A stretch of DNA of 64,000 nt from Terriglobia bacterium. Its GTDB lineage: Bacteria > Acidobacteriota > Terriglobia > 20CM-2-55-15. The notes beneath the pieces are model-generated. The model made no database searches. It had not been told where the DNA came from and saw only the letters and a list, made by a program, of their open reading frames with translations. Every line of letters starts with the position of its first letter. Position 1 is the first letter of the stretch. This document shows positions 1 through 52,009 of this stretch, in pieces. The translations under genes were made by a program, and so were the position numbers. The stretch spans positions 990,045-1,054,044 of the forward strand of contig CBDAOY010000007.1 in NCBI GenBank assembly GCA_965198225.1, in the 5' to 3' direction.

Positions 1-1669
1 CCCAGTAGTGATCCTCGACGACGACCAACCGGCCCCCTGTTTCCGCGGCTGCACGGATCAGGCCCTCGGCATCGATGGGCTTGACCGAGTATGCGTCGAT
101 GACCCGGATGGAGCAGCCTCGCTCCTTCAGGATGTCGTGTGCCTTCAAGCCTTCGTGGAGCGTGATCCCGGCGCCGACCACCGTGATGTTGTCATCATCG
201 GACTGTCTAAGAGTCTTCGAGCCGCCGATGTCAAAGACCTCGTCGGAGTCATAGATGACCGGTGCTTTCGGGCGGGTCGTGCGCAGATAGGAAATACCAT
301 CTTGATCCGCCAGTCTTGAGACCAGGCGTTCAGTCGAAACCGCGTCGCTCGGATACAGCACCACCGAGTCGGGAATGGCGCGAAACATCGCTATGTCTTC
401 CAAGCCCATCTGGGACGGTCCGTCCTGTCCTATCGAGACGCCGCAGTGGGAACCGACGAAGCGGATGTTCGCCCGGGAAATACGGGCCATCCGGATCTGG
501 TCGAAACTTCTGGTCAGAAAAGCTGCGAACGTCGAAACAAACGGGATCTTGCCGCAGGCGGACATGCCTGCAGCCACACCGACCATGTTCTGTTCCGCGA
601 TGAACATCTCGAAGAACTGATCGGCGTGATCGGCGAGGAGTTTCTGGGAGAATGTCGAGTTCTTCGTGTCGCCGTCGAGCGCAACGACACGCGGATCCTT
701 GTCGGCCAGCTTGACCAGGGCGTCACCGTAGGCCTCCCGCGTCGCGGCCTGATCTCCGCGGTTGCGGGTGACGTCGATGCGGTGTTCGACGTGGGCGGCT
801 TCGATCGGAATGCTCGGTCGCGGAGACGGTTTGTAGCCGTCTGAGCCGAGCGGGGTCGACAACTCCCGGAGTGCCGAGCTGAGTTCGGTCTTCGGTACGG
901 GCTTGCCGTGCCAGCCGTCCTTGTCTTCAAGAAGCGATACGCCTTTGCCCTTGAATGTGCGGGCGACGATCGCGCGGGGCCGATCGCCTCCCTCGGCCCG
1001 ACACTTCTCGAACGCGCCGGTGATCGCCTCGTAGTCGTGCCCGTCGATCGCGAGGGCGTACCATCCGAAAGCCCGGAATCGCTCTGCGTAACGGTCGACG
1101 TCGAAGCCGTACATCGTTCGCTGGCTCTGGCCCATGCCGTTGACATCGACGATGGCATAGAGGTTCTTCGTCTCGTAGAAACTCGCCAGCGCGGCCGCTT
1201 CCCACACCGAGCCCTCGGCGCACTCACCGTCTCCCAGCAGCACGTAAGTATCGTAGGGCGCGTCGTCCATGCGCGCGGCCAGCGCGAGGCCCAGCCCGGC
1301 CGACAGCCCCTGGCCCAGAGATCCCGTTGCCACGTCGACCCACGGGATTCGCGGGGTCGGGTGGCCCTCGAGGTCGCTGTCAAACTTGCGAAGGCTCAGC
1401 GTCGCGTTCTCATCCACAATTCCGGCTTCGGCGTACGCCGCGTACAAGAGCGGTGCCGCGTGGCCTTTCGACAACACGAACCGGTCGTTCGAAGGGTTGT
1501 TCGGCTCCTGCGGGTCGTAATGCATCTGCCGGAAGAATATGACCGAGGCCAGGTCTGCGGCCGACAGGCATGATGAAGGGTGTCCAGAGCCGGCCTCGGT
1601 CGTGGCCTTGATGGAGAGGACGCGCATTCGGCGCGCCTTTTCTTTGAGGACTTCGATGGGCGTGTCCAT
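1..1669 (-). CDS. tkt: Transketolase, N-terminal ~556 codons (3' end lies beyond the window start)
   Basis: Own minus-strand translation from ATG 1669..1667: MDTPIEVLKEKARRMRVLSIKATTEAGSGHPSSCLSAADL..RFVLSKGHAAPLLYAAYAEAG..LLGDGECAEGSVWEAA..FIAEQNMVGVAAGMS. These are classic TPP-dependent transketolase motifs. It is not in the ORF track because there is no stop inside the window. Track ORFs 8..1573 are off-frame shadows of it. Confidence 0.85.
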   Translation of the reverse strand, partial: MDTPIEVLKEKARRMRVLSIKATTEAGSGHPSSCLSAADLASVIFFRQMHYDPQEPNNPSNDRFVLSKGHAAPLLYAAYAEAGIVDENATLSLRKFDSDLEGHPTPRIPWVDVATGSLGQGLSAGLGLALAARMDDAPYDTYVLLGDGECAEGSVWEAAALASFYETKNLYAIVDVNGMGQSQRTMYGFDVDRYAERFRAFGWYALAIDGHDYEAITGAFEKCRAEGGDRPRAIVARTFKGKGVSLLEDKDGWHGKPVPKTELSSALRELSTPLGSDGYKPSPRPSIPIEAAHVEHRIDVTRNRGDQAATREAYGDALVKLADKDPRVVALDGDTKNSTFSQKLLADHADQFFEMFIAEQNMVGVAAGMSACGKIPFVSTFAAFLTRSFDQIRMARISRANIRFVGSHCGVSIGQDGPSQMGLEDIAMFRAIPDSVVLYPSDAVSTERLVSRLADQDGISYLRTTRPKAPVIYDSDEVFDIGGSKTLRQSDDDNITVVGAGITLHEGLKAHDILKERGCSIRVIDAYSVKPIDAEGLIRAAAETGGRLVVVEDHYW

Positions 1670-1925
1670 GATTTCGAACGCTGTTCCTTTTCGAACGGTT
1701 GACGACATGCTAAAGCAGCCCGAGGCCAGGCATCTCCGAGGGAACGCCGGACCGAAATTTGCCTGAGATGAAGTTGTGAATTATACGACACCTCTCGGGC
1801 CAGAAGCGGGGCCTAGAGGCAACGAAAACGGTTGGATGTTCGGCTTAGCCGTATCGCTGGTCCAATGTGATCCAGGTCTCTCCTGGCGGGCAGCCGATTC
1901 TTCTATAAAGACTGTAAAAAATGTA

Positions 1926-1954
1926 TTGACAACAAGATCACGAAAACAGATAAT
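1926..1954 (+). promoter_or_regulatory. Near-consensus sigma-70 promoter (TTGACA-N17-GATAAT)
   Basis: TTGACA at 1926..1931, exactly 17 nt of spacer, GATAAT at 1949..1954. An A/T-rich tract (ctgtaaaaaatgta) lies upstream, in an otherwise GC-rich context. Confidence 0.5.
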
Positions 1955-1960
1955 TCGCGT

Positions 1961-2021
1961 AATCTCATTAATTTGAGCGTTCCCCACACTCCGGGCCCTG
2001 CGCGATGCAGGGCCTTTTTTT
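1961..2021 (+). ncRNA. Candidate ~60-nt small RNA defined by an orphan promoter and an intrinsic terminator
   Basis: The predicted transcription start, about 7 nt after the -10 box, runs directly into the terminator hairpin at 1994..2021. No credible ORF lies between them. I do not recognise the sequence as a known RNA family. Confidence 0.3.
1994..2021 (+). terminator. Rho-independent terminator
   Basis: GGCCCTGC (1994..2001), loop GCGAT, GCAGGGCC (2007..2014), followed by T7 (2015..2021). On the opposite strand no T-tract follows the stem, so it is plus-oriented. Confidence 0.65.
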
Positions 2022-2511
2022 CTGCAGAGACACCGATGATTCTTCACTCTCGGGGCAAACGGGGCGTGCAACCGGGCGTTACCATCTTGCGTGTGCTGTC
2101 GTCGGCGAACTGAGAAACTCGAACCAGCAGCGCCACCGAAACCTGCACGCAGTGGCCGCACTCCGGTTGGGGCTCAAGGTTCGACCAAACCTCGAGGTGA
2201 GCCGTCGCTCGAATCGACAGACGCCAGCACCGATCCGGACGCCGAGGATCGCGGCGTAAAGCACTCCAAGTGATGCCGGCCGTCCTGAGGGACCTACTCG
2301 GTACAGCGACCTTGTCACGAAAGACTTCCCGTTCTTTCTCCATTTCATGTTCCGTTGAGTCGAGTGATGAGCTGGTCTTTTCCCGTCGGTCATAGCATCC
2401 ACGGTATTGCAGCAGTCCAATCCGGTGGGCACGACGAGACCTCCCACCAACAGAATCCCGTCCGATTTTCGACCTGCTTCTCTAGAGCGGAAGTGTCCGC
2501 CAACCGTAATC

Positions 2512-3000
2512 CTAGGCGGTCTTGCCTACATCAAGCCATCTGCGAATCGCTCTGGAGGCGTCGCGCCGGATGATCTCTTCCAAGTACGGCACGAGGCAAG
2601 CATACGGACGCCTCAGCCAGGGCGTGCCCTTCGGATCATCCCCCGCGAAGCCAAAGTCGATCCAATCCTCGCATCCCGCGAAATGTCCGCCCCGGCAGAG
2701 CCGACATATTCGCCAGCGTAGCTTGCTTTTCGCGCCCTGTCCGAGGACTAGGAAAGTCTTTCGTTCGGCCTGCAGCTCCCGAATCTGCCTGAGTTCGTAG
2801 CGAAGAGATTCGGACATCATGTCAATCGTGACAATGACGTGGGACGACAGGCGAACGCACTCGCGGACCAGCTCGCGCCATTTGTCGTCCGGTGCGATTA
2901 GCTTCGGAATTGGCATGGGTCTGGCGGCCAAGTTCAAGGTTGACGAGCCCAAGCCGATAACGGAACACCCTTGACCTCCGGCCACGTAGTTGGGGCGCAC
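2512..3000 (-). CDS. Hypothetical protein (162 aa), family not recognised
   Basis: This is the only ORF of plausible composition in the 1.5-kb gap between tkt and tRNA-Ser. No motif was recognised. Confidence 0.25.
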   Translation of the reverse strand: MRPNYVAGGQGCSVIGLGSSTLNLAARPMPIPKLIAPDDKWRELVRECVRLSSHVIVTIDMMSESLRYELRQIRELQAERKTFLVLGQGAKSKLRWRICRLCRGGHFAGCEDWIDFGFAGDDPKGTPWLRRPYACLVPYLEEIIRRDASRAIRRWLDVGKTA

Positions 3001-3161
3001 CCAACGTCTTGGGCTGGTTCCGTTGCTTGGCAGCGGTGCGAAGATCGAGAACCGGCTGGAGAATCGGGGTAGACCCGTCCAAACTGTGGGGTGAAATGCG
3101 GAGCACAGGACCGACCGTCAATGAATCAACTCTGTTATCAGCAGCTTACAGCTACGGGAAG

Positions 3162-3248
3162 CGGAGAGGGTGGGATTCGAACCCACGGTGGAGTCACCCC
3201 CACACCGGTTTTCGAGACCGGCCTGTTCAACCGCTCCAGCACCTCTCC
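3162..3248 (-). tRNA. tRNA-Ser (anticodon CGA)
   Basis: The reverse complement folds as a cloverleaf: acceptor GGAGAGG/CCTCTCC with discriminator G, anticodon stem CCGGT/ACCGG with loop CUCGAAA (anticodon CGA), a long variable arm (GTGG..CCAC) typical of class II tRNAs, and T arm GTGGG-TTCGAAT-CCCAC. No CCA is encoded. Confidence 0.92.
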
Positions 3249-3402
3249 GTAGTTGATTTTACACCACTTAGCAAGGCCCACCACTTTTCATCGTCAGTCG
3301 ACAGTCCGCCTCCGTGGCAGCGCGGCAAGACAAACGAGGCCCCCCTCGAACATGAAGAAGGACTTGGGGGCCTGGCCTATCGCTGCCCGGGAATCGTGGA
3401 TT

Positions 3403-6400
3403 TCAGTCTTCGCCGCCTTTCCCGGACTTCTTGGACTTATCTGACTTTTCGGATTTGTCCGATTTGCCGGACTTGCCCGACTCCTCAGACTTGTTCGATT
3501 TTCCGGACTTGTCGGACTTACCCGATTTGTCGTCATCGTCGCCTTCGATGTCAGCCTGGATGCGGATCTCTCCCGAGTCGTTGCCGATCGTTAGGTTGAC
3601 CTCGACTGGATTCGAGATACTGTCCAGATTCACGGCCTCCGCCTCGACTCGAAAGTCGAAGGCGTCCGGACCCAGCTCGCGAATCCTCAGCTCCAGCTCG
3701 ATCCCGGCGACCTCGCCTTCAAACTCAAAGATGTCCGCACCACCCTTACGGCGGAACTCCAGCGAACCTGCCGGCAGCGTCAGTTCGAAGACGCCGATGT
3801 TCAGGACAACATCTTCCTGTGACGGGTCGATACCGTCGGAAGCGACGCCCAGCGTGAAAGCTTCCCGGAGGTCGAACTCGCCGTCCGCGCCCGTTTCAAT
3901 CTCAGCGACGGCGGCGAAATCGGCAAATATCTCTGGCTGCGTGTCGCGGATGGTGATCTCCACAGTGTCGTCGACGCAGTCGGAGCGAGAGTTGCAGGCC
4001 CGGAAGGCCGCCGAAACAATGGTATCCGCTCCCACCGACGGTGCGAGGAACGTTGCGCTGGCTCCCGACGTCTCGAAGACGCCGTCGCTGTCTGTGTCCC
4101 ATTCAAGAGTCAGGAACGACACATCGCCCCCTTCCGCGTGGGTAACAGTCCCGTTGAGCGCAATCGACTCTCCTTCGTCGACCTCGTACGGCCCCCCGGC
4201 ATCCGCCGTGATACCGGCGAGATCCTCGTCGCCGAACGTGTCCCCGGGAGCTACTGCTGCTATTTCGTTGCCGTCGGAGTCAACCACCCGAAGTGCAACG
4301 TTGCCCAGATTCTCGACCAGGAACTGTCCCAGCGGGGACTCGGTGACCTTGCCGATCCCGCCCGTCGGGATCGACACGAAGGTGTCAGCGCCGAAGCCGA
4401 CCTCGACTGGCCCACGGAGGACCTCTAAGGTCAGGGACCCGCACAGGAACTTCACGGCATCGTTCTGGTCCAGGTCCACTCCCTGGCCGCACGCCACGAT
4501 GTGCGCCTTTTCGGTCCCGCCCCTGGCGTTGGCGAACAACCCGTTTCCGAACGCGTCCCAAACCGTCACGTGCTGGTCCGCCCGGATCATTATGAAACCG
4601 GAACTAATCCCGTCGCTGAAATCGTCAGAAAAGGTCTGATCGGTGTCCACCTGGTCGATGATCCCGTCGCCGTCCCGGTCTTGCGGACCGATGGCCGTGA
4701 CGCGGCCCCCCACCCCAACGATGGCGCCGACCACCTTGTTCGAAACCGTCCCGTTTTCGTCCACCACCTCGATGACCTGAACGACGGACTCACTGGCCAC
4801 GTAGACCTTCGTCCCGTCCGGACTCACTGTGACGTCACTACCGAACGCCCCCGGCACTGCCGGGACGACGACGTCCTTGACGTTCGTGTCGATAACCGCG
4901 ACTCCAAACGGTCCCATCGCAACGTAGACGAGATGGCCATGGCCGTCTACGGGCTGCGGTGTCACGGCCAGATCGGACGGTACACCTCCAACGCTGATGT
5001 CCTTGACCTTCATGCCGTACTCACTGGTGTTCCTGTCAGCGCCGATGACGGAGACGGTCTTCGCGTTGGCAAAGGTATTCCCCACATAGGCCCACTGACC
5101 GTCGGGCGTCACGAGTACAGGACTGGGCTGGGTACCGACAACGATGTCGAGGGCCTCGGAGGTCTCGGTGTCGATCCGCGTGACCTTTTTCTGTTCGCGC
5201 CGGGTGGCGTAGACCTGAGTGCCGTCCGGGTGCACCGCCACACCGTCGAAGTTTTCCGCTGCTTTACCGGAATGTAAGACGGTCAGACCATGGGTCTCAG
5301 TGTCCATCACGTAGATGTCCGACCTGTTGCCACCCTGGTTGTCATTTTTGTCCTCGTGGACCACGACGAAGAGCTTCGTTCCGTCGGGGCTCACGACCAG
5401 TGCTTCGGGACCTGGTCCAACGACGTCCTCAACGGGGATAGGGACCTTGTGCACCTGTTTGGTGGCCGTGTCGAAGACCACAACGTTTTGGAGGTTGTTA
5501 AGGGAGTCCCGCTCGAGCCCATAGACTTCTGCCCCGTCTGGACGGACTGCGACGGCACCTGGCGCGCGATCAGTCAGGCCCGGCACAAGAGCTCCCGGCA
5601 CCGTTTCGGTGAGCAGGCAGTCATTGGCGGTGTCGATGATGCGGCCGTCGCCGGTATAGGCAAGCGGCCCGCCACCGCCGGTGCACGAAAGGGTGATCTT
5701 CGCGACGAACGCGTCGTTTCCGATTCCAGCGTTTGGCTGCAGCGTATTCCCCTCCTGCGGGAAGTTGGCGGATCCCGTTGTGCCGGCGACATAGACCTCA
5801 CCGAACGGGTTGACCGCGATACCGGAGCCCCTGTCGGCTCCGCTTCCTCCAAGGTAGGTGGAATACACGAGGTCTGTCCCGGAAAGGTTGAACTTGCTGA
5901 TGAAGGCATCGCAGAGCGTGCCATCGTGCAAGTGGGCTACGGGGTCCTCGGGTAGAGGGTCGACGAGTGGGAAACCGGTCATCGGGGCAGTCGTCGAGCA
6001 GCCCTGCCCGGTCACGTAAACGCCCGAGGGGTCTGCCGCGACAGCGTATCCGTAGTCGTCTCCCACGCCGCCCAGGAACGTGGAATACGTGAGATCCGCA
6101 CAGTTGTTGTACTGGACCTGTCCGATCGGGCAGCTCACGAAGGAGGAGTTGCCCGCGGACAGTGCCGCCACAAACACATCGTAAGTCCCACCGCCATGTG
6201 TCTCCTGGTAGGTGCCCGGAAAGCCGAAATTGCTGGAGGAGACAGGGAAGTCCATCGAAATGGTCTCTCCTGTGACCACGATTCCCCACGGACTGAAGGA
6301 TATGCCTCGCGCCAGGTCCCAGCTGGAGCCGCCCAGGTAGGTGGCATACTCCAGACGAGCTATCCCCTGGTTGTTTGTGCCCAGTTCGGCCAGAAAGGCG

Positions 6401-8004
6401 TCGCATCCGCCGCCGTACTGGGTTGAGAAAGGAGTCGCCGAAGGAGGGGTGGGAAAGTCGTCTGAGCAGGTCTGTCCCGTCACGAAGGGGCCGGTCGACT
6501 CGGAGCCGACGATGATTCCCAGACCATCCTCGCTGGACTGGCCCCCAAGGTAGACACCGTAGTCGAAGTCGTGACAGTCGCTGTATTGGATTCCGTTGAT
6601 GTTGCAGGAACTCTCGTTGAAGGGAGTGCTGATATCGAGCTTGACCACGAAGGCGTCCCGGGCAAGCAGCGGATTGTTCACGTCGATGGAGAGCGTGGTC
6701 AGTGCGGATTGGGCGTTGTCGGCAGGGAAGTCCGCCGAGTGGGTTGTGCCGGTAACAAAGACGGAGTTCACGGTGTTCGGTAAGAGCGAGGGTGTCACAG
6801 CCACGCCGAGGGCGAGGTCGTCGCGGCTGCCGCCCAGATAGGTGGAGTACTGGAGTTGCCCGCTGAAGGGCGCGAGCGCAAGCACAAAGCCGTCCAGATC
6901 GGTGCCTCCTAACTTGTTGGGGTCCAATCCCCGGTCAAAGGCGTCGGGAGTCGTGGGGAAGTCCGATGACCTGGTGTGACCTACTACGTACACCGTGCCC
7001 GAGGGCGCCGGGACGATTCCCCTCGCGGACTCGTCGCCTGTCCCTCCGAAGTAGACGGAATAGGCCAGGGCGCCGGAGCTGTCTATCTTGACCACGAAGC
7101 CGTCGTCTCCTGCCGCCGGCGGCACCTGGGTTGCCGGACCGGGCAGTGTGGCGCCCGAGGTGGTCGACCCTGCTACATAAACGTTCCCCTCGCCGTCGAT
7201 GGCGATGCCACGGGCTGAATCCTCGCCCATCCCGCCAAGGTAGCTGGAGTAGCCTAGCTCCAGCACCGGATCGATGACCAGAGTTTTGCTGTCATCGTAT
7301 GCGGCCAGTTGAAAACCGACGACCTGGGATTCTGGATTCAAGAGGTATCCGCCGGGGACCGTTTGCCGCCGACCGTCGATTTCCTGGTAGATGACGGGTT
7401 TTCGAAGTCGAACCTCACCGGTGGAGGTGTCGAGGACGAGGTCCCCGTTCGTGTCGATTTCGACTCTATCCGGACCCTCCAAGGAAACCTTGATGGAGTC
7501 GGGATCAGCCCCGGGCGCAACTATGAAGTCGTGCTCCCAGCGCCGTTGGTTGCCATAGTGAACGAGGTCGATCCCTGGATAGACATTCTGGTATCGGACC
7601 CTTGCGTAGGTTGGGAGGTTGGTGCGCCACTTCTCGGGGTCGCTTCCGATGAAGTAACTGCTCTTGCCTGGCAGCTCCTGGAGGCCGATGATAGCCGATC
7701 CGGAGTCGGCGCCGACGAGCCGCATCCGCACCGCACTTGCCGGGGTTTTGCCGGCGTCGCGCTCACGGAGCAGAAGAACCGCTTCTTCGGAAGTCAGGAA
7801 GAGCGTATAGCCGCTGCCTCGGGAAATGAACCGGACCTCTTCGTCCGCCTGGCCCTGGTTGGGCTCGAAGGCCATCGGTAATTGCACGAAGGTCGCCGGC
7901 AGGCTCTGGTCGACCTTTCCTTCACCCTGGCTGTTGGCCCCCCCGGGGGAAACCACGATTCCGAACAAAAGGCAGACCAAGAAGGCTTTCATCGCCGATC
8001 GCAT
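3403..8004 (-). CDS. Giant secreted beta-propeller repeat protein (SBBP-type and YVTN-type repeats) with a K/S/D-rich C-terminal tail
   Basis: 1533-aa ORF with signal peptide MRSAMKAFLVCLLFGIVVSPGGANSQ. It has many 'YSTYLGGSxxDxxxGIAVxxxGxVYVxGxTxSxDFP' repeats (SBBP beta-propeller signature) and 'VSPDGTKVYVA'-type repeats. The tail is DDDDKSGKSDKSGKSNKSEESGKSGKSDKSEKSDKSKKSGKGGED. Confidence 0.85.
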   Translation of the reverse strand: MRSAMKAFLVCLLFGIVVSPGGANSQGEGKVDQSLPATFVQLPMAFEPNQGQADEEVRFISRGSGYTLFLTSEEAVLLLRERDAGKTPASAVRMRLVGADSGSAIIGLQELPGKSSYFIGSDPEKWRTNLPTYARVRYQNVYPGIDLVHYGNQRRWEHDFIVAPGADPDSIKVSLEGPDRVEIDTNGDLVLDTSTGEVRLRKPVIYQEIDGRRQTVPGGYLLNPESQVVGFQLAAYDDSKTLVIDPVLELGYSSYLGGMGEDSARGIAIDGEGNVYVAGSTTSGATLPGPATQVPPAAGDDGFVVKIDSSGALAYSVYFGGTGDESARGIVPAPSGTVYVVGHTRSSDFPTTPDAFDRGLDPNKLGGTDLDGFVLALAPFSGQLQYSTYLGGSRDDLALGVAVTPSLLPNTVNSVFVTGTTHSADFPADNAQSALTTLSIDVNNPLLARDAFVVKLDISTPFNESSCNINGIQYSDCHDFDYGVYLGGQSSEDGLGIIVGSESTGPFVTGQTCSDDFPTPPSATPFSTQYGGGCDAFLAELGTNNQGIARLEYATYLGGSSWDLARGISFSPWGIVVTGETISMDFPVSSSNFGFPGTYQETHGGGTYDVFVAALSAGNSSFVSCPIGQVQYNNCADLTYSTFLGGVGDDYGYAVAADPSGVYVTGQGCSTTAPMTGFPLVDPLPEDPVAHLHDGTLCDAFISKFNLSGTDLVYSTYLGGSGADRGSGIAVNPFGEVYVAGTTGSANFPQEGNTLQPNAGIGNDAFVAKITLSCTGGGGPLAYTGDGRIIDTANDCLLTETVPGALVPGLTDRAPGAVAVRPDGAEVYGLERDSLNNLQNVVVFDTATKQVHKVPIPVEDVVGPGPEALVVSPDGTKLFVVVHEDKNDNQGGNRSDIYVMDTETHGLTVLHSGKAAENFDGVAVHPDGTQVYATRREQKKVTRIDTETSEALDIVVGTQPSPVLVTPDGQWAYVGNTFANAKTVSVIGADRNTSEYGMKVKDISVGGVPSDLAVTPQPVDGHGHLVYVAMGPFGVAVIDTNVKDVVVPAVPGAFGSDVTVSPDGTKVYVASESVVQVIEVVDENGTVSNKVVGAIVGVGGRVTAIGPQDRDGDGIIDQVDTDQTFSDDFSDGISSGFIMIRADQHVTVWDAFGNGLFANARGGTEKAHIVACGQGVDLDQNDAVKFLCGSLTLEVLRGPVEVGFGADTFVSIPTGGIGKVTESPLGQFLVENLGNVALRVVDSDGNEIAAVAPGDTFGDEDLAGITADAGGPYEVDEGESIALNGTVTHAEGGDVSFLTLEWDTDSDGVFETSGASATFLAPSVGADTIVSAAFRACNSRSDCVDDTVEITIRDTQPEIFADFAAVAEIETGADGEFDLREAFTLGVASDGIDPSQEDVVLNIGVFELTLPAGSLEFRRKGGADIFEFEGEVAGIELELRIRELGPDAFDFRVEAEAVNLDSISNPVEVNLTIGNDSGEIRIQADIEGDDDDKSGKSDKSGKSNKSEESGKSGKSDKSEKSDKSKKSGKGGED

Positions 8005-37194: not shown

Positions 37195-37236
37195 GTGTGG
37201 GTGCGCTCTATATGAGCGCACATCGTTTCGGCTCAA

Positions 37237-37486
37237 AGAATGTGCGGTCATAGACCGCAGCTACACCTATCGCAAATTGCGATATTTGAAAGAATCCACA
37301 TTGCAGGTTGCTCATTGGAGATTGTTTCATTTTAGATTTCCGACCAATAAGAAATCGAGCAATTTGCAATCTCCAAATTTCCAATGCGGAATCGTCCAAT
37401 GACCAATCTGCAATAGCTGTCAGACGAGGTCCCAGCCACCTCCCTCGATCGAGTAGAATGTGCGGTCATAGAGCGCACCTACACTT
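37237..37486. repeat. Composite repeat: ~30-bp direct repeats (GAATGTGCGGTCATAGASCGCA..CTACAC) flanking a palindromic CATTGGAGATTG / CAATCTCCAAAT core
   Basis: The direct repeats are at 37237..37266 and 37456..37486. The left half of the core (AATCCACATTGCAGGTTGCTCATTGGAGATTGTTTCA) recurs at about 23170..23215. Confidence 0.6.
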
Positions 37487-51380: not shown

Positions 51381-51620
51381 GGCAGCCTCCCATGTCCTGG
51401 TGATCTTATGCCTTGAGACTGGATCGTCGATTGTAGGCGATCCAGGACGCGACCCTACAAGTACTTGGCGACTCTAGTGTAATGGGATCCGCAGGTTACG
51501 TTGCGTGCCGAACACGGATCACCGCTGGAGTGTGGACACAGCGGAAGGTTCACCGTGCCGACGGACGGGTAAGCCAGCCACCTTGAGCAGGATCATCTTG
51601 GGACGCCATCGGCGGCACAC

Positions 51621-51971
51621 CTAACGTCGGCGGCCGCAGGACACGAATATCTCCACGTCGGCCCTCAGCGCGCGCTCCGTGTTGTGGCTGAAGGCACCCC
51701 GGGCCGCTTTGAAGTAGGCGGCCAGTTGGTCCCCTGCCTCCGCAGCGTATTCAACACGGAACGAGAGCGTTCTCGAGCGGGTTGGTCTGCCCGATCGCCT
51801 TGTGCAGCGTGGCGATGCTGGAGACGTAGCGGCGCACCGTCGCCGGGGCCTTGACGCGCGCCATGTCGTCGATGAAGGCGACCAGGGTGGGGGCGTTGGC
51901 GGGCAACGCCGGCACGACCTGCTGCCGGCAGCCAGGATCTCCATCTCGCATGTCATCTCTGAAATCAGCAT
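51621..51971 (-). pseudogene. Fragments of a tyrosine-recombinase N-terminal (SAM-like) domain, frameshifted and in permuted order
   Basis: The frame A segment ..CRQQVVPALPANAPTLVAFIDDMARVKAPATVRRYVSSIATLHKAIGQTNPLENA is followed by the frame B segment ..AAYFKAARGAFSHNTERALRADVEIFVSC. In intact integrases of this type the B-like segment precedes the A-like segment. Confidence 0.45.
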
Positions 51972-52009
51972 CGGGCGGCCTCCGGTTCAGTCGAAAAAGG
52001 CCGCGAATT

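Follow-up and report, generated by a model that had tools for sequence, protein, structure and literature searches.

Positions 1902..2021 of the 64,000-nucleotide (nt) stretch of Terriglobia bacterium DNA analysed here (hereafter, the window) very probably make up a genuine, independently transcribed gene that stands on its own and specifies a non-coding RNA of about 60 nt, as judged from the signals in the sequence and from their fate in related genomes. The RNA represents a new, previously undescribed family of a familiar small RNA (sRNA) type, and sequence comparison indicates that its gene has been kept within a clade of Terriglobia that are uncultured (Bryobacterales/Solibacteraceae-like Acidobacteriota). 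The original prediction, made from the letters of the window alone, had proposed a small regulatory RNA at this site, between a transketolase gene (tkt) and a serine tRNA gene, on the basis of a near-consensus promoter that runs straight into an intrinsic terminator. That proposal now finds support in the selective conservation of the unit, in the footprint of its promoter and in a terminator that covaries. We also infer, as a reasonably probable reading of the whole, that this RNA would act by base-pairing in trans.

The promoter signals all lie on the plus strand and follow one another without interruption. An A/T-rich, UP-like element (TCTATAAAGACTGTAAAAAATGTA, 1902..1925), which contains two CT(A/G)TAAA half-repeats 9 nt apart, is located directly 5' of the −35 hexamer TTGACA (1926..1931), and a spacer of 17 nt (1932..1948) connects this hexamer to the −10 hexamer GATAAT (1949..1954). 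The resulting TTGACA-N17-GATAAT (1926..1954) agrees with the σ70 consensus TTGACA-N17-TATAAT at 11 of 12 positions, that is, near-consensus hexamers stand at the 16–18 nt spacing that characterizes promoters of the σ70 type. When both strands of the window were scanned for this consensus with at most one mismatch, the site was the sole match, while dinucleotide shuffles of the 64-kb sequence yielded a mean of 0.04 matches at 11/12, with any match in 4 of 100 shuffles. Sequence and consensus scan thus confirm the promoter and its A/T-rich upstream tract as first described. The GC content drops to 0.485–0.49 at 1801..2100, versus approximately 0.6 elsewhere. The tract at 1902..1925 may serve as an UP element or as the binding site of a regulator, and transcription is predicted, from the distance to the −10 hexamer, to start at A1961/A1962, the second of which is invariant among the copies found in relatives.

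The predicted sRNA (1962..2021, plus strand, approximately 60 nt) ends within a U-tract and can be divided into three parts. At its 5' end, both the minimum free energy (MFE) fold and the consensus fold contain a weak hairpin of 4 bp with an A/U-rich loop (CUCA-UUAAUU-UGAG, 1964..1977). This is followed by a C-rich single-stranded linker of 15 nt (CGUUCCCCACACUCC, 1978..1992), which stays without a pairing partner in the MFE, centroid and consensus folds, as would be expected of the conserved seed region of a trans-encoded base-pairing sRNA, and which we presume to be the seed or functional motif. The 3' end is an intrinsic terminator (1993..2021), in which GGGCCCTGC (1993..2001) pairs with GCAGGGCCT (2007..2015) around a 5-nt loop (GCGAT in the DNA, GCGAU in the RNA), with a run of seven T (U7 in the RNA) at 2015..2021. 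The stem holds 7–8 G-C pairs in 9 bp and, with its short loop and adjoining U-tract, has the composition of a Rho-independent terminator; it is the top terminator-like site within the first 20 kb of the window. The GC hairpin with T7 about 40 nt past the promoter, as originally described, is therefore present, with a stem that extends over 9 bp from 1993 (8 bp from 1994 in the original description). The fold energy of the predicted 61-nt RNA is −21.8 kcal/mol, which corresponds to z = −3.3 against shuffles. Taken by itself, the pair of promoter and terminator is unusual, not decisive; it is the comparison with relatives that shows it to be more than chance.

Relatives were gathered by a scan anchored on tkt, with one genome per species, and later by collecting further tkt homologues and their contigs. 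The transketolase of the closest relative (L001) is 97% identical to that of the window, followed by six relatives at about 75–76% (L002, L003, L004, L005, L010 and L012), which are labelled Terriglobia or uncultured Solibacteraceae, and by a Candidatus Sulfopaludibacter (L007) at 69%, which falls within Bryobacterales/Solibacteraceae. In a BLASTN comparison of window positions 1670..3400 with the first set of related loci, the only segment besides the tRNA-Ser gene that was conserved beyond L001 was 1903..2037. The contigs of the later tkt homologues contributed seven additional copies of the sRNA. With a covariance model that was trained on six close copies, scores between 67 and 94 bits were obtained in 13 distinct loci, the window counted (the window, L001, L002, whose copy equals that of L081, L003, L010, L012, L083, L084, L085, L086, L087, L089 and L090), and the 12 loci besides the window belong to metagenome-assembled genomes (MAGs). 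This model is narrow, such that the divergent copy in L007, which was found by a regular-expression search, scores 13.7 bits. Together with a partial copy, L082, these make 15 copies in total. Other than in L082, whose tkt was not examined, the sRNA is located upstream of tkt on the opposite strand in all of the other copies (13 of 14). A pattern scan of metagenomes returned two contigs only, one of them identical to L002 and the other the partial copy L082 (JGI contig Ga0310120_10030387, 2950..3060). The latter comprises the 5' part with a promoter spacer of 15 nt and lacks a terminator, unrelated sequence replacing the hairpin after ...CACACTCCGGG; a copy in decay, an alternative 3' end and a chimeric assembly are all conceivable.

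The pattern of conservation across these copies follows the predicted functional parts closely. The A/T-rich upstream element shows a mean pairwise identity of 71%, with the block CT(A/G)TAAAAACT(A/G)TAA(A/C)AAATGTA, and the −35 hexamer is the same in each of the 15 copies that were examined, even the divergent one in L007 (100% identity). The −10 hexamer is 62% identical: GATAAT, GAGAAT, CAGAAT, CACAAT, CAGGAT, GAAACT and CAAAAT occur among the relatives, the majority of copies fitting xAxAAT, and the A at position 2 and the T at position 6 never change. The spacer between the two hexamers measures 17 nt in every full copy, but its sequence is only 33% identical in pairwise comparison, which is about the random level. 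Hexamers and spacing are therefore kept and the sequence between the hexamers drifts freely, which is the signature expected of a working promoter. Overall, the sRNA is 77–98% identical to that of the window, and its first 33 nt are 88–100% identical, while the DNA upstream of the A/T-rich block and downstream of the U-tract is unalignable among relatives. The contrast is most clearly seen in the 10 relatives with approximately 76–78% amino acid identity in tkt, where the third codon positions of tkt are 41–49% identical to the window and the 100–130 nt flanks of the sRNA unit 40–54%, close to random, whereas the sRNA itself retains 77–97%. Since the sRNA is conserved where tkt third positions and flanks are near random, we take this as direct evidence, at the level of sequence, that purifying selection acts on the elements of the promoter as well as on the RNA sequence. 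The original prediction had suggested examining the conservation of 1926..2021 and had named an unconserved segment between conserved flanks as the pattern that would speak against it. What we found is the reverse: promoter and transcribed 60 nt are kept where the tkt protein is only about 76% identical, and it is the flanks that cannot be aligned.

These data leave hardly any probability to a chance juxtaposition of signals or to the leftover leader of a decayed gene, the latter having been offered as an option from the outset. It is true that loose promoter sites (9 of 12 positions) are about as frequent in the window as in its shuffles, and that the DNA surrounding the unit in the window is non-coding and unstable. 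Yet at 11/12 the expectation per window is the 0.04 matches given above, 13 other genomes show clear purifying selection on the unit, and the loci are not assembly duplicates of one organism, given their 76% tkt identity. As for a leader, there is no conserved reading frame or gene 3' of the unit on the same strand, and in three genomes a convergent tRNA-Ser gene follows after only 56–95 nt.

Further evidence comes from the terminator stem, which is kept by compensatory substitutions. In the alignment, 98% of the cells of the stem are paired, compared with 16–58% when the pairing is slid by 1–3 columns, and three pairs display compensatory changes (columns 40/50, 35/55 and 34/56). Columns 40/50 read U-A in seven copies, C-G in four and U-G in two, and columns 35/55 alternate between G-C and A-U; the observed covariation score was matched by none of 500 shuffles. 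This pattern also bears on the possibility that the conserved block acts in cis on tkt, either as a shared regulatory region made up of the divergent promoter and its A/T-rich upstream repeats or because transcription from it modulates the tkt promoter about 110–180 bp away, and that the RNA is a by-product. The divergent linkage to tkt in 14 of 14 copies with examined flanks, next to a rearranged other side, would fit such a role, as would the CT(A/G)TAAA half-repeats, which could bind a regulator. However, the transcribed part is the most conserved one, the DNA between the two promoters is unalignable, and a by-product RNA needs neither an invariant body nor a covarying terminator; moreover, relatives that lack the element retain the same tkt promoter block. 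We therefore consider an action in cis on tkt quite unlikely.

The most divergent copy helps to narrow down which part of the RNA matters. The copy in L007 comes with a promoter (TTGACA-N17-CAAAAT) and a terminator of its own, and the only sequence that it has in common with the others is TTGAGCGTTCCCCACA; across all 15 copies, L007 included, the shared motif is GAGCGUUCCCCA(C/U)A. The 5' hairpin is absent from this copy, and its closing pair is broken in L087. In the predicted fold of the L007 RNA, the partner of UUGAGC has shifted from upstream to downstream, and UCCCCA comes to lie in a hairpin loop. Because the C-rich motif stays unpaired despite this rearranged pairing, its exposure is, as far as the modelled folds go, the feature that is preserved.

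We compared the element with known RNA families and with other kinds of element. A scan of the whole window against Rfam 15 at gathering thresholds returned the tRNA-Ser only. With the cutoff relaxed to E ≤ 10 for positions 1600..3400, the best match was isrD (RF01388) with 21.1 bits, compared with a gathering threshold of 37, the aligned part consisting mostly of the terminator and generic A/U sequence; it was followed by mmgR/suhB (RF00519) with 19.7 bits against 41 and a Betaproteobacteria toxic sRNA with 14.9 against 50. The element accordingly falls in no Rfam 15 family, including Acido-1 (RF01686), Acido-Lenti-1 (RF01687), RsaE, 6C, 6S and the preQ1 riboswitches. The Rfam scan that had been suggested with the original prediction thus found no known family, so the RNA is undescribed, and our literature searches turned up no description of it; the name Solibacter-1, which was considered, belongs to an unrelated 118-nt repeat. 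The element stands as an independent unit, as is typical of trans-encoded sRNAs, with neither a conserved open reading frame (ORF) nor a conserved gene downstream on its strand.

Other assignments were considered and rejected. The absence of a conserved same-strand downstream gene, the neighbours being convergent or unrelated, speaks against a cis-regulatory leader, an attenuator or a riboswitch. The conserved 120-nt block has no start codon or ribosome-binding site and its frames run into unconserved DNA, so that it is not coding. We likewise dismissed a type I toxin-antitoxin RNA, as conservation ends with the 120-nt unit and the ORF on the opposite strand (1781..2161) is not conserved, its flanks being unalignable. 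Finally, a repetitive extragenic palindromic (REP) sequence, a miniature inverted-repeat transposable element or the end of a mobile element would not be expected to occur as a single copy in the window, even with filters off, and as one copy per locus; within this scope, that is, the window and the related loci, no paralogues of the sRNA were found.

The gene lies at the edge of a variable region. On its upstream side, tkt (1..1669, minus strand, ATG at 1669) is cut at its C-terminus by the window edge and was recognized from its translation and from the Pfam domains of its homologues. On the other side, the convergent neighbour is a tRNA-Ser(CGA) gene (3161..3248, minus strand), as identified by ARAGORN and Rfam, which is also found downstream of the sRNA in L001, L012, L085, L086, L087 and L007. 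The interval between the sRNA and this tRNA is 56–95 nt long in L085–L087 and ranges from 56 nt to more than 1 kb across loci. In the window, it amounts to 1,139 nt of variable and apparently non-coding DNA (2022..3160), of which only 2023..2181 and 2228..2446 are shared, with L001 alone and with no other locus. None of the ORFs in 1670..3160 has a significant Pfam match, the ORF at 1776..1976 remaining below threshold at 13 bits. The original description had mentioned a single weak ORF here, and just one of sizeable length lies between tkt and the tRNA gene (2512..3000, minus strand); for this orphan of 162 aa, neither a Pfam match nor a homologue in the related loci compared, L001 included, was found, and the DNA that holds it is unique to this genome. 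Of the earlier description as a gene-poor, AT-richer patch, the drop in GC and the scarcity of ORFs stand, but the patch is better read as variable DNA with a conserved sRNA gene at its edge.

The content of the downstream side varies by lineage and includes a convergent gene of the FAH family (L002 and L007), integrase or transposase genes and unrelated ORFs. In L083, L085, L089, L001 and L092, integrase or transposase genes are found beside the tkt-sRNA pair, on the side of the tRNA-Ser. This marks the tRNA-Ser side as an insertion hot spot. From the comparison of loci, the genes apparently followed one another ancestrally as tkt (leftward), sRNA (rightward) and tRNA-Ser(CGA) (leftward), in the compact arrangement seen in L085–L087, and the patch in the window is an insertion-prone interval beside a tRNA gene, presumably with a history of insertions. 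A further ORF of 1,533 aa (3403..8004, minus strand) adjoins the tRNA-Ser gene and ends in C-terminal low-complexity repeats of the KSGKSDKS type, to which a short-period repeat in the DNA at 3420..3540 corresponds.

In such a setting, one may ask whether the conserved block is itself mobile DNA, namely a site of attachment or one end of an integrative element directed at the tRNA-Ser region, and conserved because such elements carry it. The integrase and transposase genes and the variable DNA on the tRNA-Ser side of several loci, as well as the variable distance between element and tRNA-Ser (56 nt to more than 1 kb), are what this explanation would predict. Against it, no att repeats are found in the window, as neither the sRNA block nor the 3' end of the tRNA is directly repeated within 1600..3400, and the block is the single copy in the window mentioned above. 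The sRNA unit also has no match in collections of viral contigs, plasmids and phages. A spacer of fixed length and free sequence, together with compensatory changes in a stem, fits a promoter and an RNA and not a recombination core. We therefore regard a mobile-DNA origin as extremely unlikely.

Two observations concern the promoters of neighbouring genes. A putative tkt promoter consists of a TATAAT on the minus strand (plus-strand ATTATA, 1780..1785), located approximately 110 nt upstream of the tkt ATG and preceded by the block CCCCGCTTCTGGCC; a TTGACA-like −35 is not evident at a distance of 17 nt. This block (~1780..1815, minus strand) is also present in L002, L003, L012, L004 and L088 and is thus kept in relatives without the sRNA. 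In L085–L090, tkt is adjoined by queF, where TTGATA-N17-TATAGT ends about 7 nt before the GTG start codon (for example, L086 6286..6340, minus strand), a spacing which suggests that the queF mRNA may be leaderless.

Two further features were noticed elsewhere in the window. A REP-like palindrome, GTGCGGTCATAGAGCGCACCTACA, occurs twice on the plus strand of one 600-nt intergenic region (37242..37265 and 37460..37483), where none would be expected by chance, and a related hairpin is found at ~37196..37218. A similar copy lies between tkt and the sRNA promoter in L010, which suggests, from these sequences, a small repeat family in the lineage. At 51600..52000 on the minus strand, short overlapping ORFs with a phage-integrase-like N-terminal sequence are embedded in 900 nt without a long frame and probably represent a degraded integrase gene.

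Turning to function, the layout of the element (its own promoter, a length of about 60 nt, an A/U-rich 5' part, an unpaired stretch and a U7 terminator) makes a trans-acting base-pairing sRNA the most likely interpretation. In the mechanism that we propose, a strong promoter of the σ70 type would start the RNA at about A1961/1962 and the intrinsic terminator would end it at about 2021, producing a molecule with a weak A/U-rich 5' hairpin, the C-rich unpaired stretch and a GC-rich terminator with a U-tail. The exposed C-rich stretch would then pair in trans with G-rich, Shine-Dalgarno-like sequences of mRNAs (...GGAGUGUGGGGAA...), and this pairing would alter their translation or stability; sites complementary to UUCCCCACACUCC would accordingly be expected near start codons. 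The complement of the linker is GGAGUGUGGGGAACG, which opens with a Shine-Dalgarno-like GGAG and fits the common mechanism of an sRNA that occludes ribosome-binding sites. The A/U-rich part at the 5' end and the U-tail at the 3' end could plausibly be contacted by an RNA chaperone, for instance Hfq, which does occur in Acidobacteria, where it forms a group of its own in the Hfq phylogeny (PMC7074383).

Predicting targets had been another of the suggested follow-ups, and the searches that we made gave nothing above background. Within the window, exact and near-exact complements and sliding duplexes on both strands yielded no more strong sites than shuffled seeds did; the top duplexes lie within coding regions, antisense to genes, in the REP-like hairpin at 37.2 kb and in the degenerate integrase region at 51.5 kb. 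A sliding-duplex search of 12 related loci likewise found no site that recurs at orthologous positions on the transcribed strand, with the exception of the tRNA-Ser. Pairing with the 5' untranslated region (UTR) of tkt reached p = 0.22–0.76 in the six loci free of overlap artefacts, and an apparent match in the tkt 5' UTR of L007 was discarded as such an artefact because the scanned region overlaps the sRNA gene itself. The start region of queF shows no conserved pairing with the sRNA.

The exceptional site raises the question of whether the RNA acts on the precursor of the neighbouring tRNA-Ser(CGA), affecting its maturation or abundance, or whether this precursor serves as a sponge for the sRNA. 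The C-rich stretch (CCCCACAC-U-CCGG, 1978..1996) is complementary to CCGGUGUGGGG, located where the anticodon stem (3' strand) meets the variable arm, and the pairing was looked at in the window, L085, L086, L087, L012 and L001. The duplex is predicted at −25.5 kcal/mol, ranks 2nd of ~6,600 windows in L085–L087 and 23rd in the window, and has p ~0.01–0.03 against shuffled tRNA; in addition, this tRNA gene is the ancestral convergent neighbour. If this were the case, a chromosomal sRNA would be dedicated to one rare serine tRNA in an uncultured acidobacterial lineage. However, the pairing was noticed post hoc, it is weaker in L007 (p = 0.11), and the identical tRNA is found in L004 and L006, which have no sRNA near tkt, with no sign of coevolution. 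The paired segment also lies inside stable tRNA helices, and the G-rich arms of tRNAs readily pair with any C-rich probe. We thus judge an action on this tRNA very unlikely.

Several observations weigh against a trans-acting base-pairing sRNA or at least temper our confidence in it. First, the transcript and both of its ends are predictions from sequence. Second, the sRNA is absent within ~6 kb of tkt in L004, L005, L006, L008, L009, L088, L091, L092 and L093–L096 (with filters off where tested), and these relatives have diverged to a similar degree as the carriers. Third, the 5' hairpin receives no support from covariation, its sequence being so invariant that the alignment is uninformative. 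Fourth, no homologue of Hfq, CsrA or ProQ is encoded in the window or in the fetched loci, a small sample that says little. Fifth, scans for complements of the seed in the 64-kb window and in ~130 kb of related loci, which together cover about 1% of a genome and thus have little power, found nothing above the shuffled background. Lastly, the whole 5' half of the RNA is invariant, which goes beyond what a simple seed would need and could point to protein binding.

This last point leads to the possibility that the RNA is real but that its main role is to bind or sequester a protein, or to serve as another kind of structural RNA. Its first 33 nt are 88–100% identical in relatives whose neutral sites are near saturation, whereas a seed of 7–12 nt usually needs less. 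The empty target scans would also be accounted for, and a promoter that looks very strong, as this one does with its perfect −35 hexamer, its 17-nt spacer and an UP-like element, is common for abundant housekeeping RNAs. On the other hand, the RNA has no recognizable protein-binding repeats such as the GGA motifs of CsrA and no similarity to 6S, signal recognition particle (SRP), Y or other structured Rfam families, and ~60 nt with one weak hairpin offer little structure to recognize. What L007 retains is only GAGCGUUCCCCACA, which looks more like a seed. On balance we consider a protein-binding or structural role unlikely, and base-pairing in trans through the C-rich linker remains the reading that we prefer.

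Acidobacteriota are abundant in many environments, and almost nothing is known of their RNA regulators: a survey in 2022 counted four annotated sRNA families in Acidobacteria compared with 345 in Proteobacteria (PMC9029176). Against this background, the locus provides a candidate with clear boundaries, in which the promoter leaves a footprint, the terminator covaries and the body is under purifying selection, and the sRNA could be used for RNA family databases, for the annotation of metagenome-assembled genomes and for searches of metatranscriptomes. Promoter models of the phylum should also benefit from the near-consensus σ70 promoter and its UP-like element that are documented here for this lineage. 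No concept is changed by the finding, which adds a new family to a familiar type.

The nearest described acidobacterial RNA is Acido-1 (RF01686; Weinberg et al. 2010, PMC2864571), which is found in Acidobacteria including Solibacter usitatus and measures ~60–67 nt. Like the RNA described here, Acido-1 combines two hairpins with a single-stranded linker of high conservation; it shows no tie to particular genes and has been proposed to act in trans (PMC2864571). There is nevertheless no match in sequence or structure, and the RF01686 model does not pick up the RNA of the window even at E ≤ 10. The linker and the conserved 3' loop of Acido-1 are G-rich (CUGCACUCAGAGGGU and GGGAGGGG), whereas the linker is C-rich here and an ordinary terminator, variable in its loop and followed by a U-tail, forms the 3' hairpin; similarly, the 5' stem of Acido-1 has 9 bp and covaries, while that of the present RNA has 4 bp and is invariant.

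In terms of architecture, the element resembles the Hfq-dependent trans-encoded sRNAs of Proteobacteria, with which it has in common its own σ70 promoter, a length in the range of 50–100 nt and an unpaired conserved seed. It also possesses an A/U-rich stretch beside a stem and a terminator U-tail of at least six residues, which form the Hfq-binding module in that class. It differs in phylum, Hfq binding is only proposed here, and the isrD score mentioned above does not amount to homology. A second group of interest comprises RsaE/RoxS of Bacillota and the 6C RNA of Actinomycetota, RNAs of ~90–115 nt that carry at least two C-rich motifs in loops and whose exposed C-rich motifs pair with G-rich ribosome-binding sites. 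The exposed C-rich motif of the present RNA is comparable, in particular in L007, where UCCCCA is predicted to sit in a hairpin loop. In contrast to those RNAs, however, there is a single C-rich stretch here, located in the linker, and their Rfam models remain unmatched at E ≤ 10. By analogy, the Hfq-type and the C-rich-seed sRNAs would be the closest functional counterparts of the new family, in a resemblance that is architectural only.

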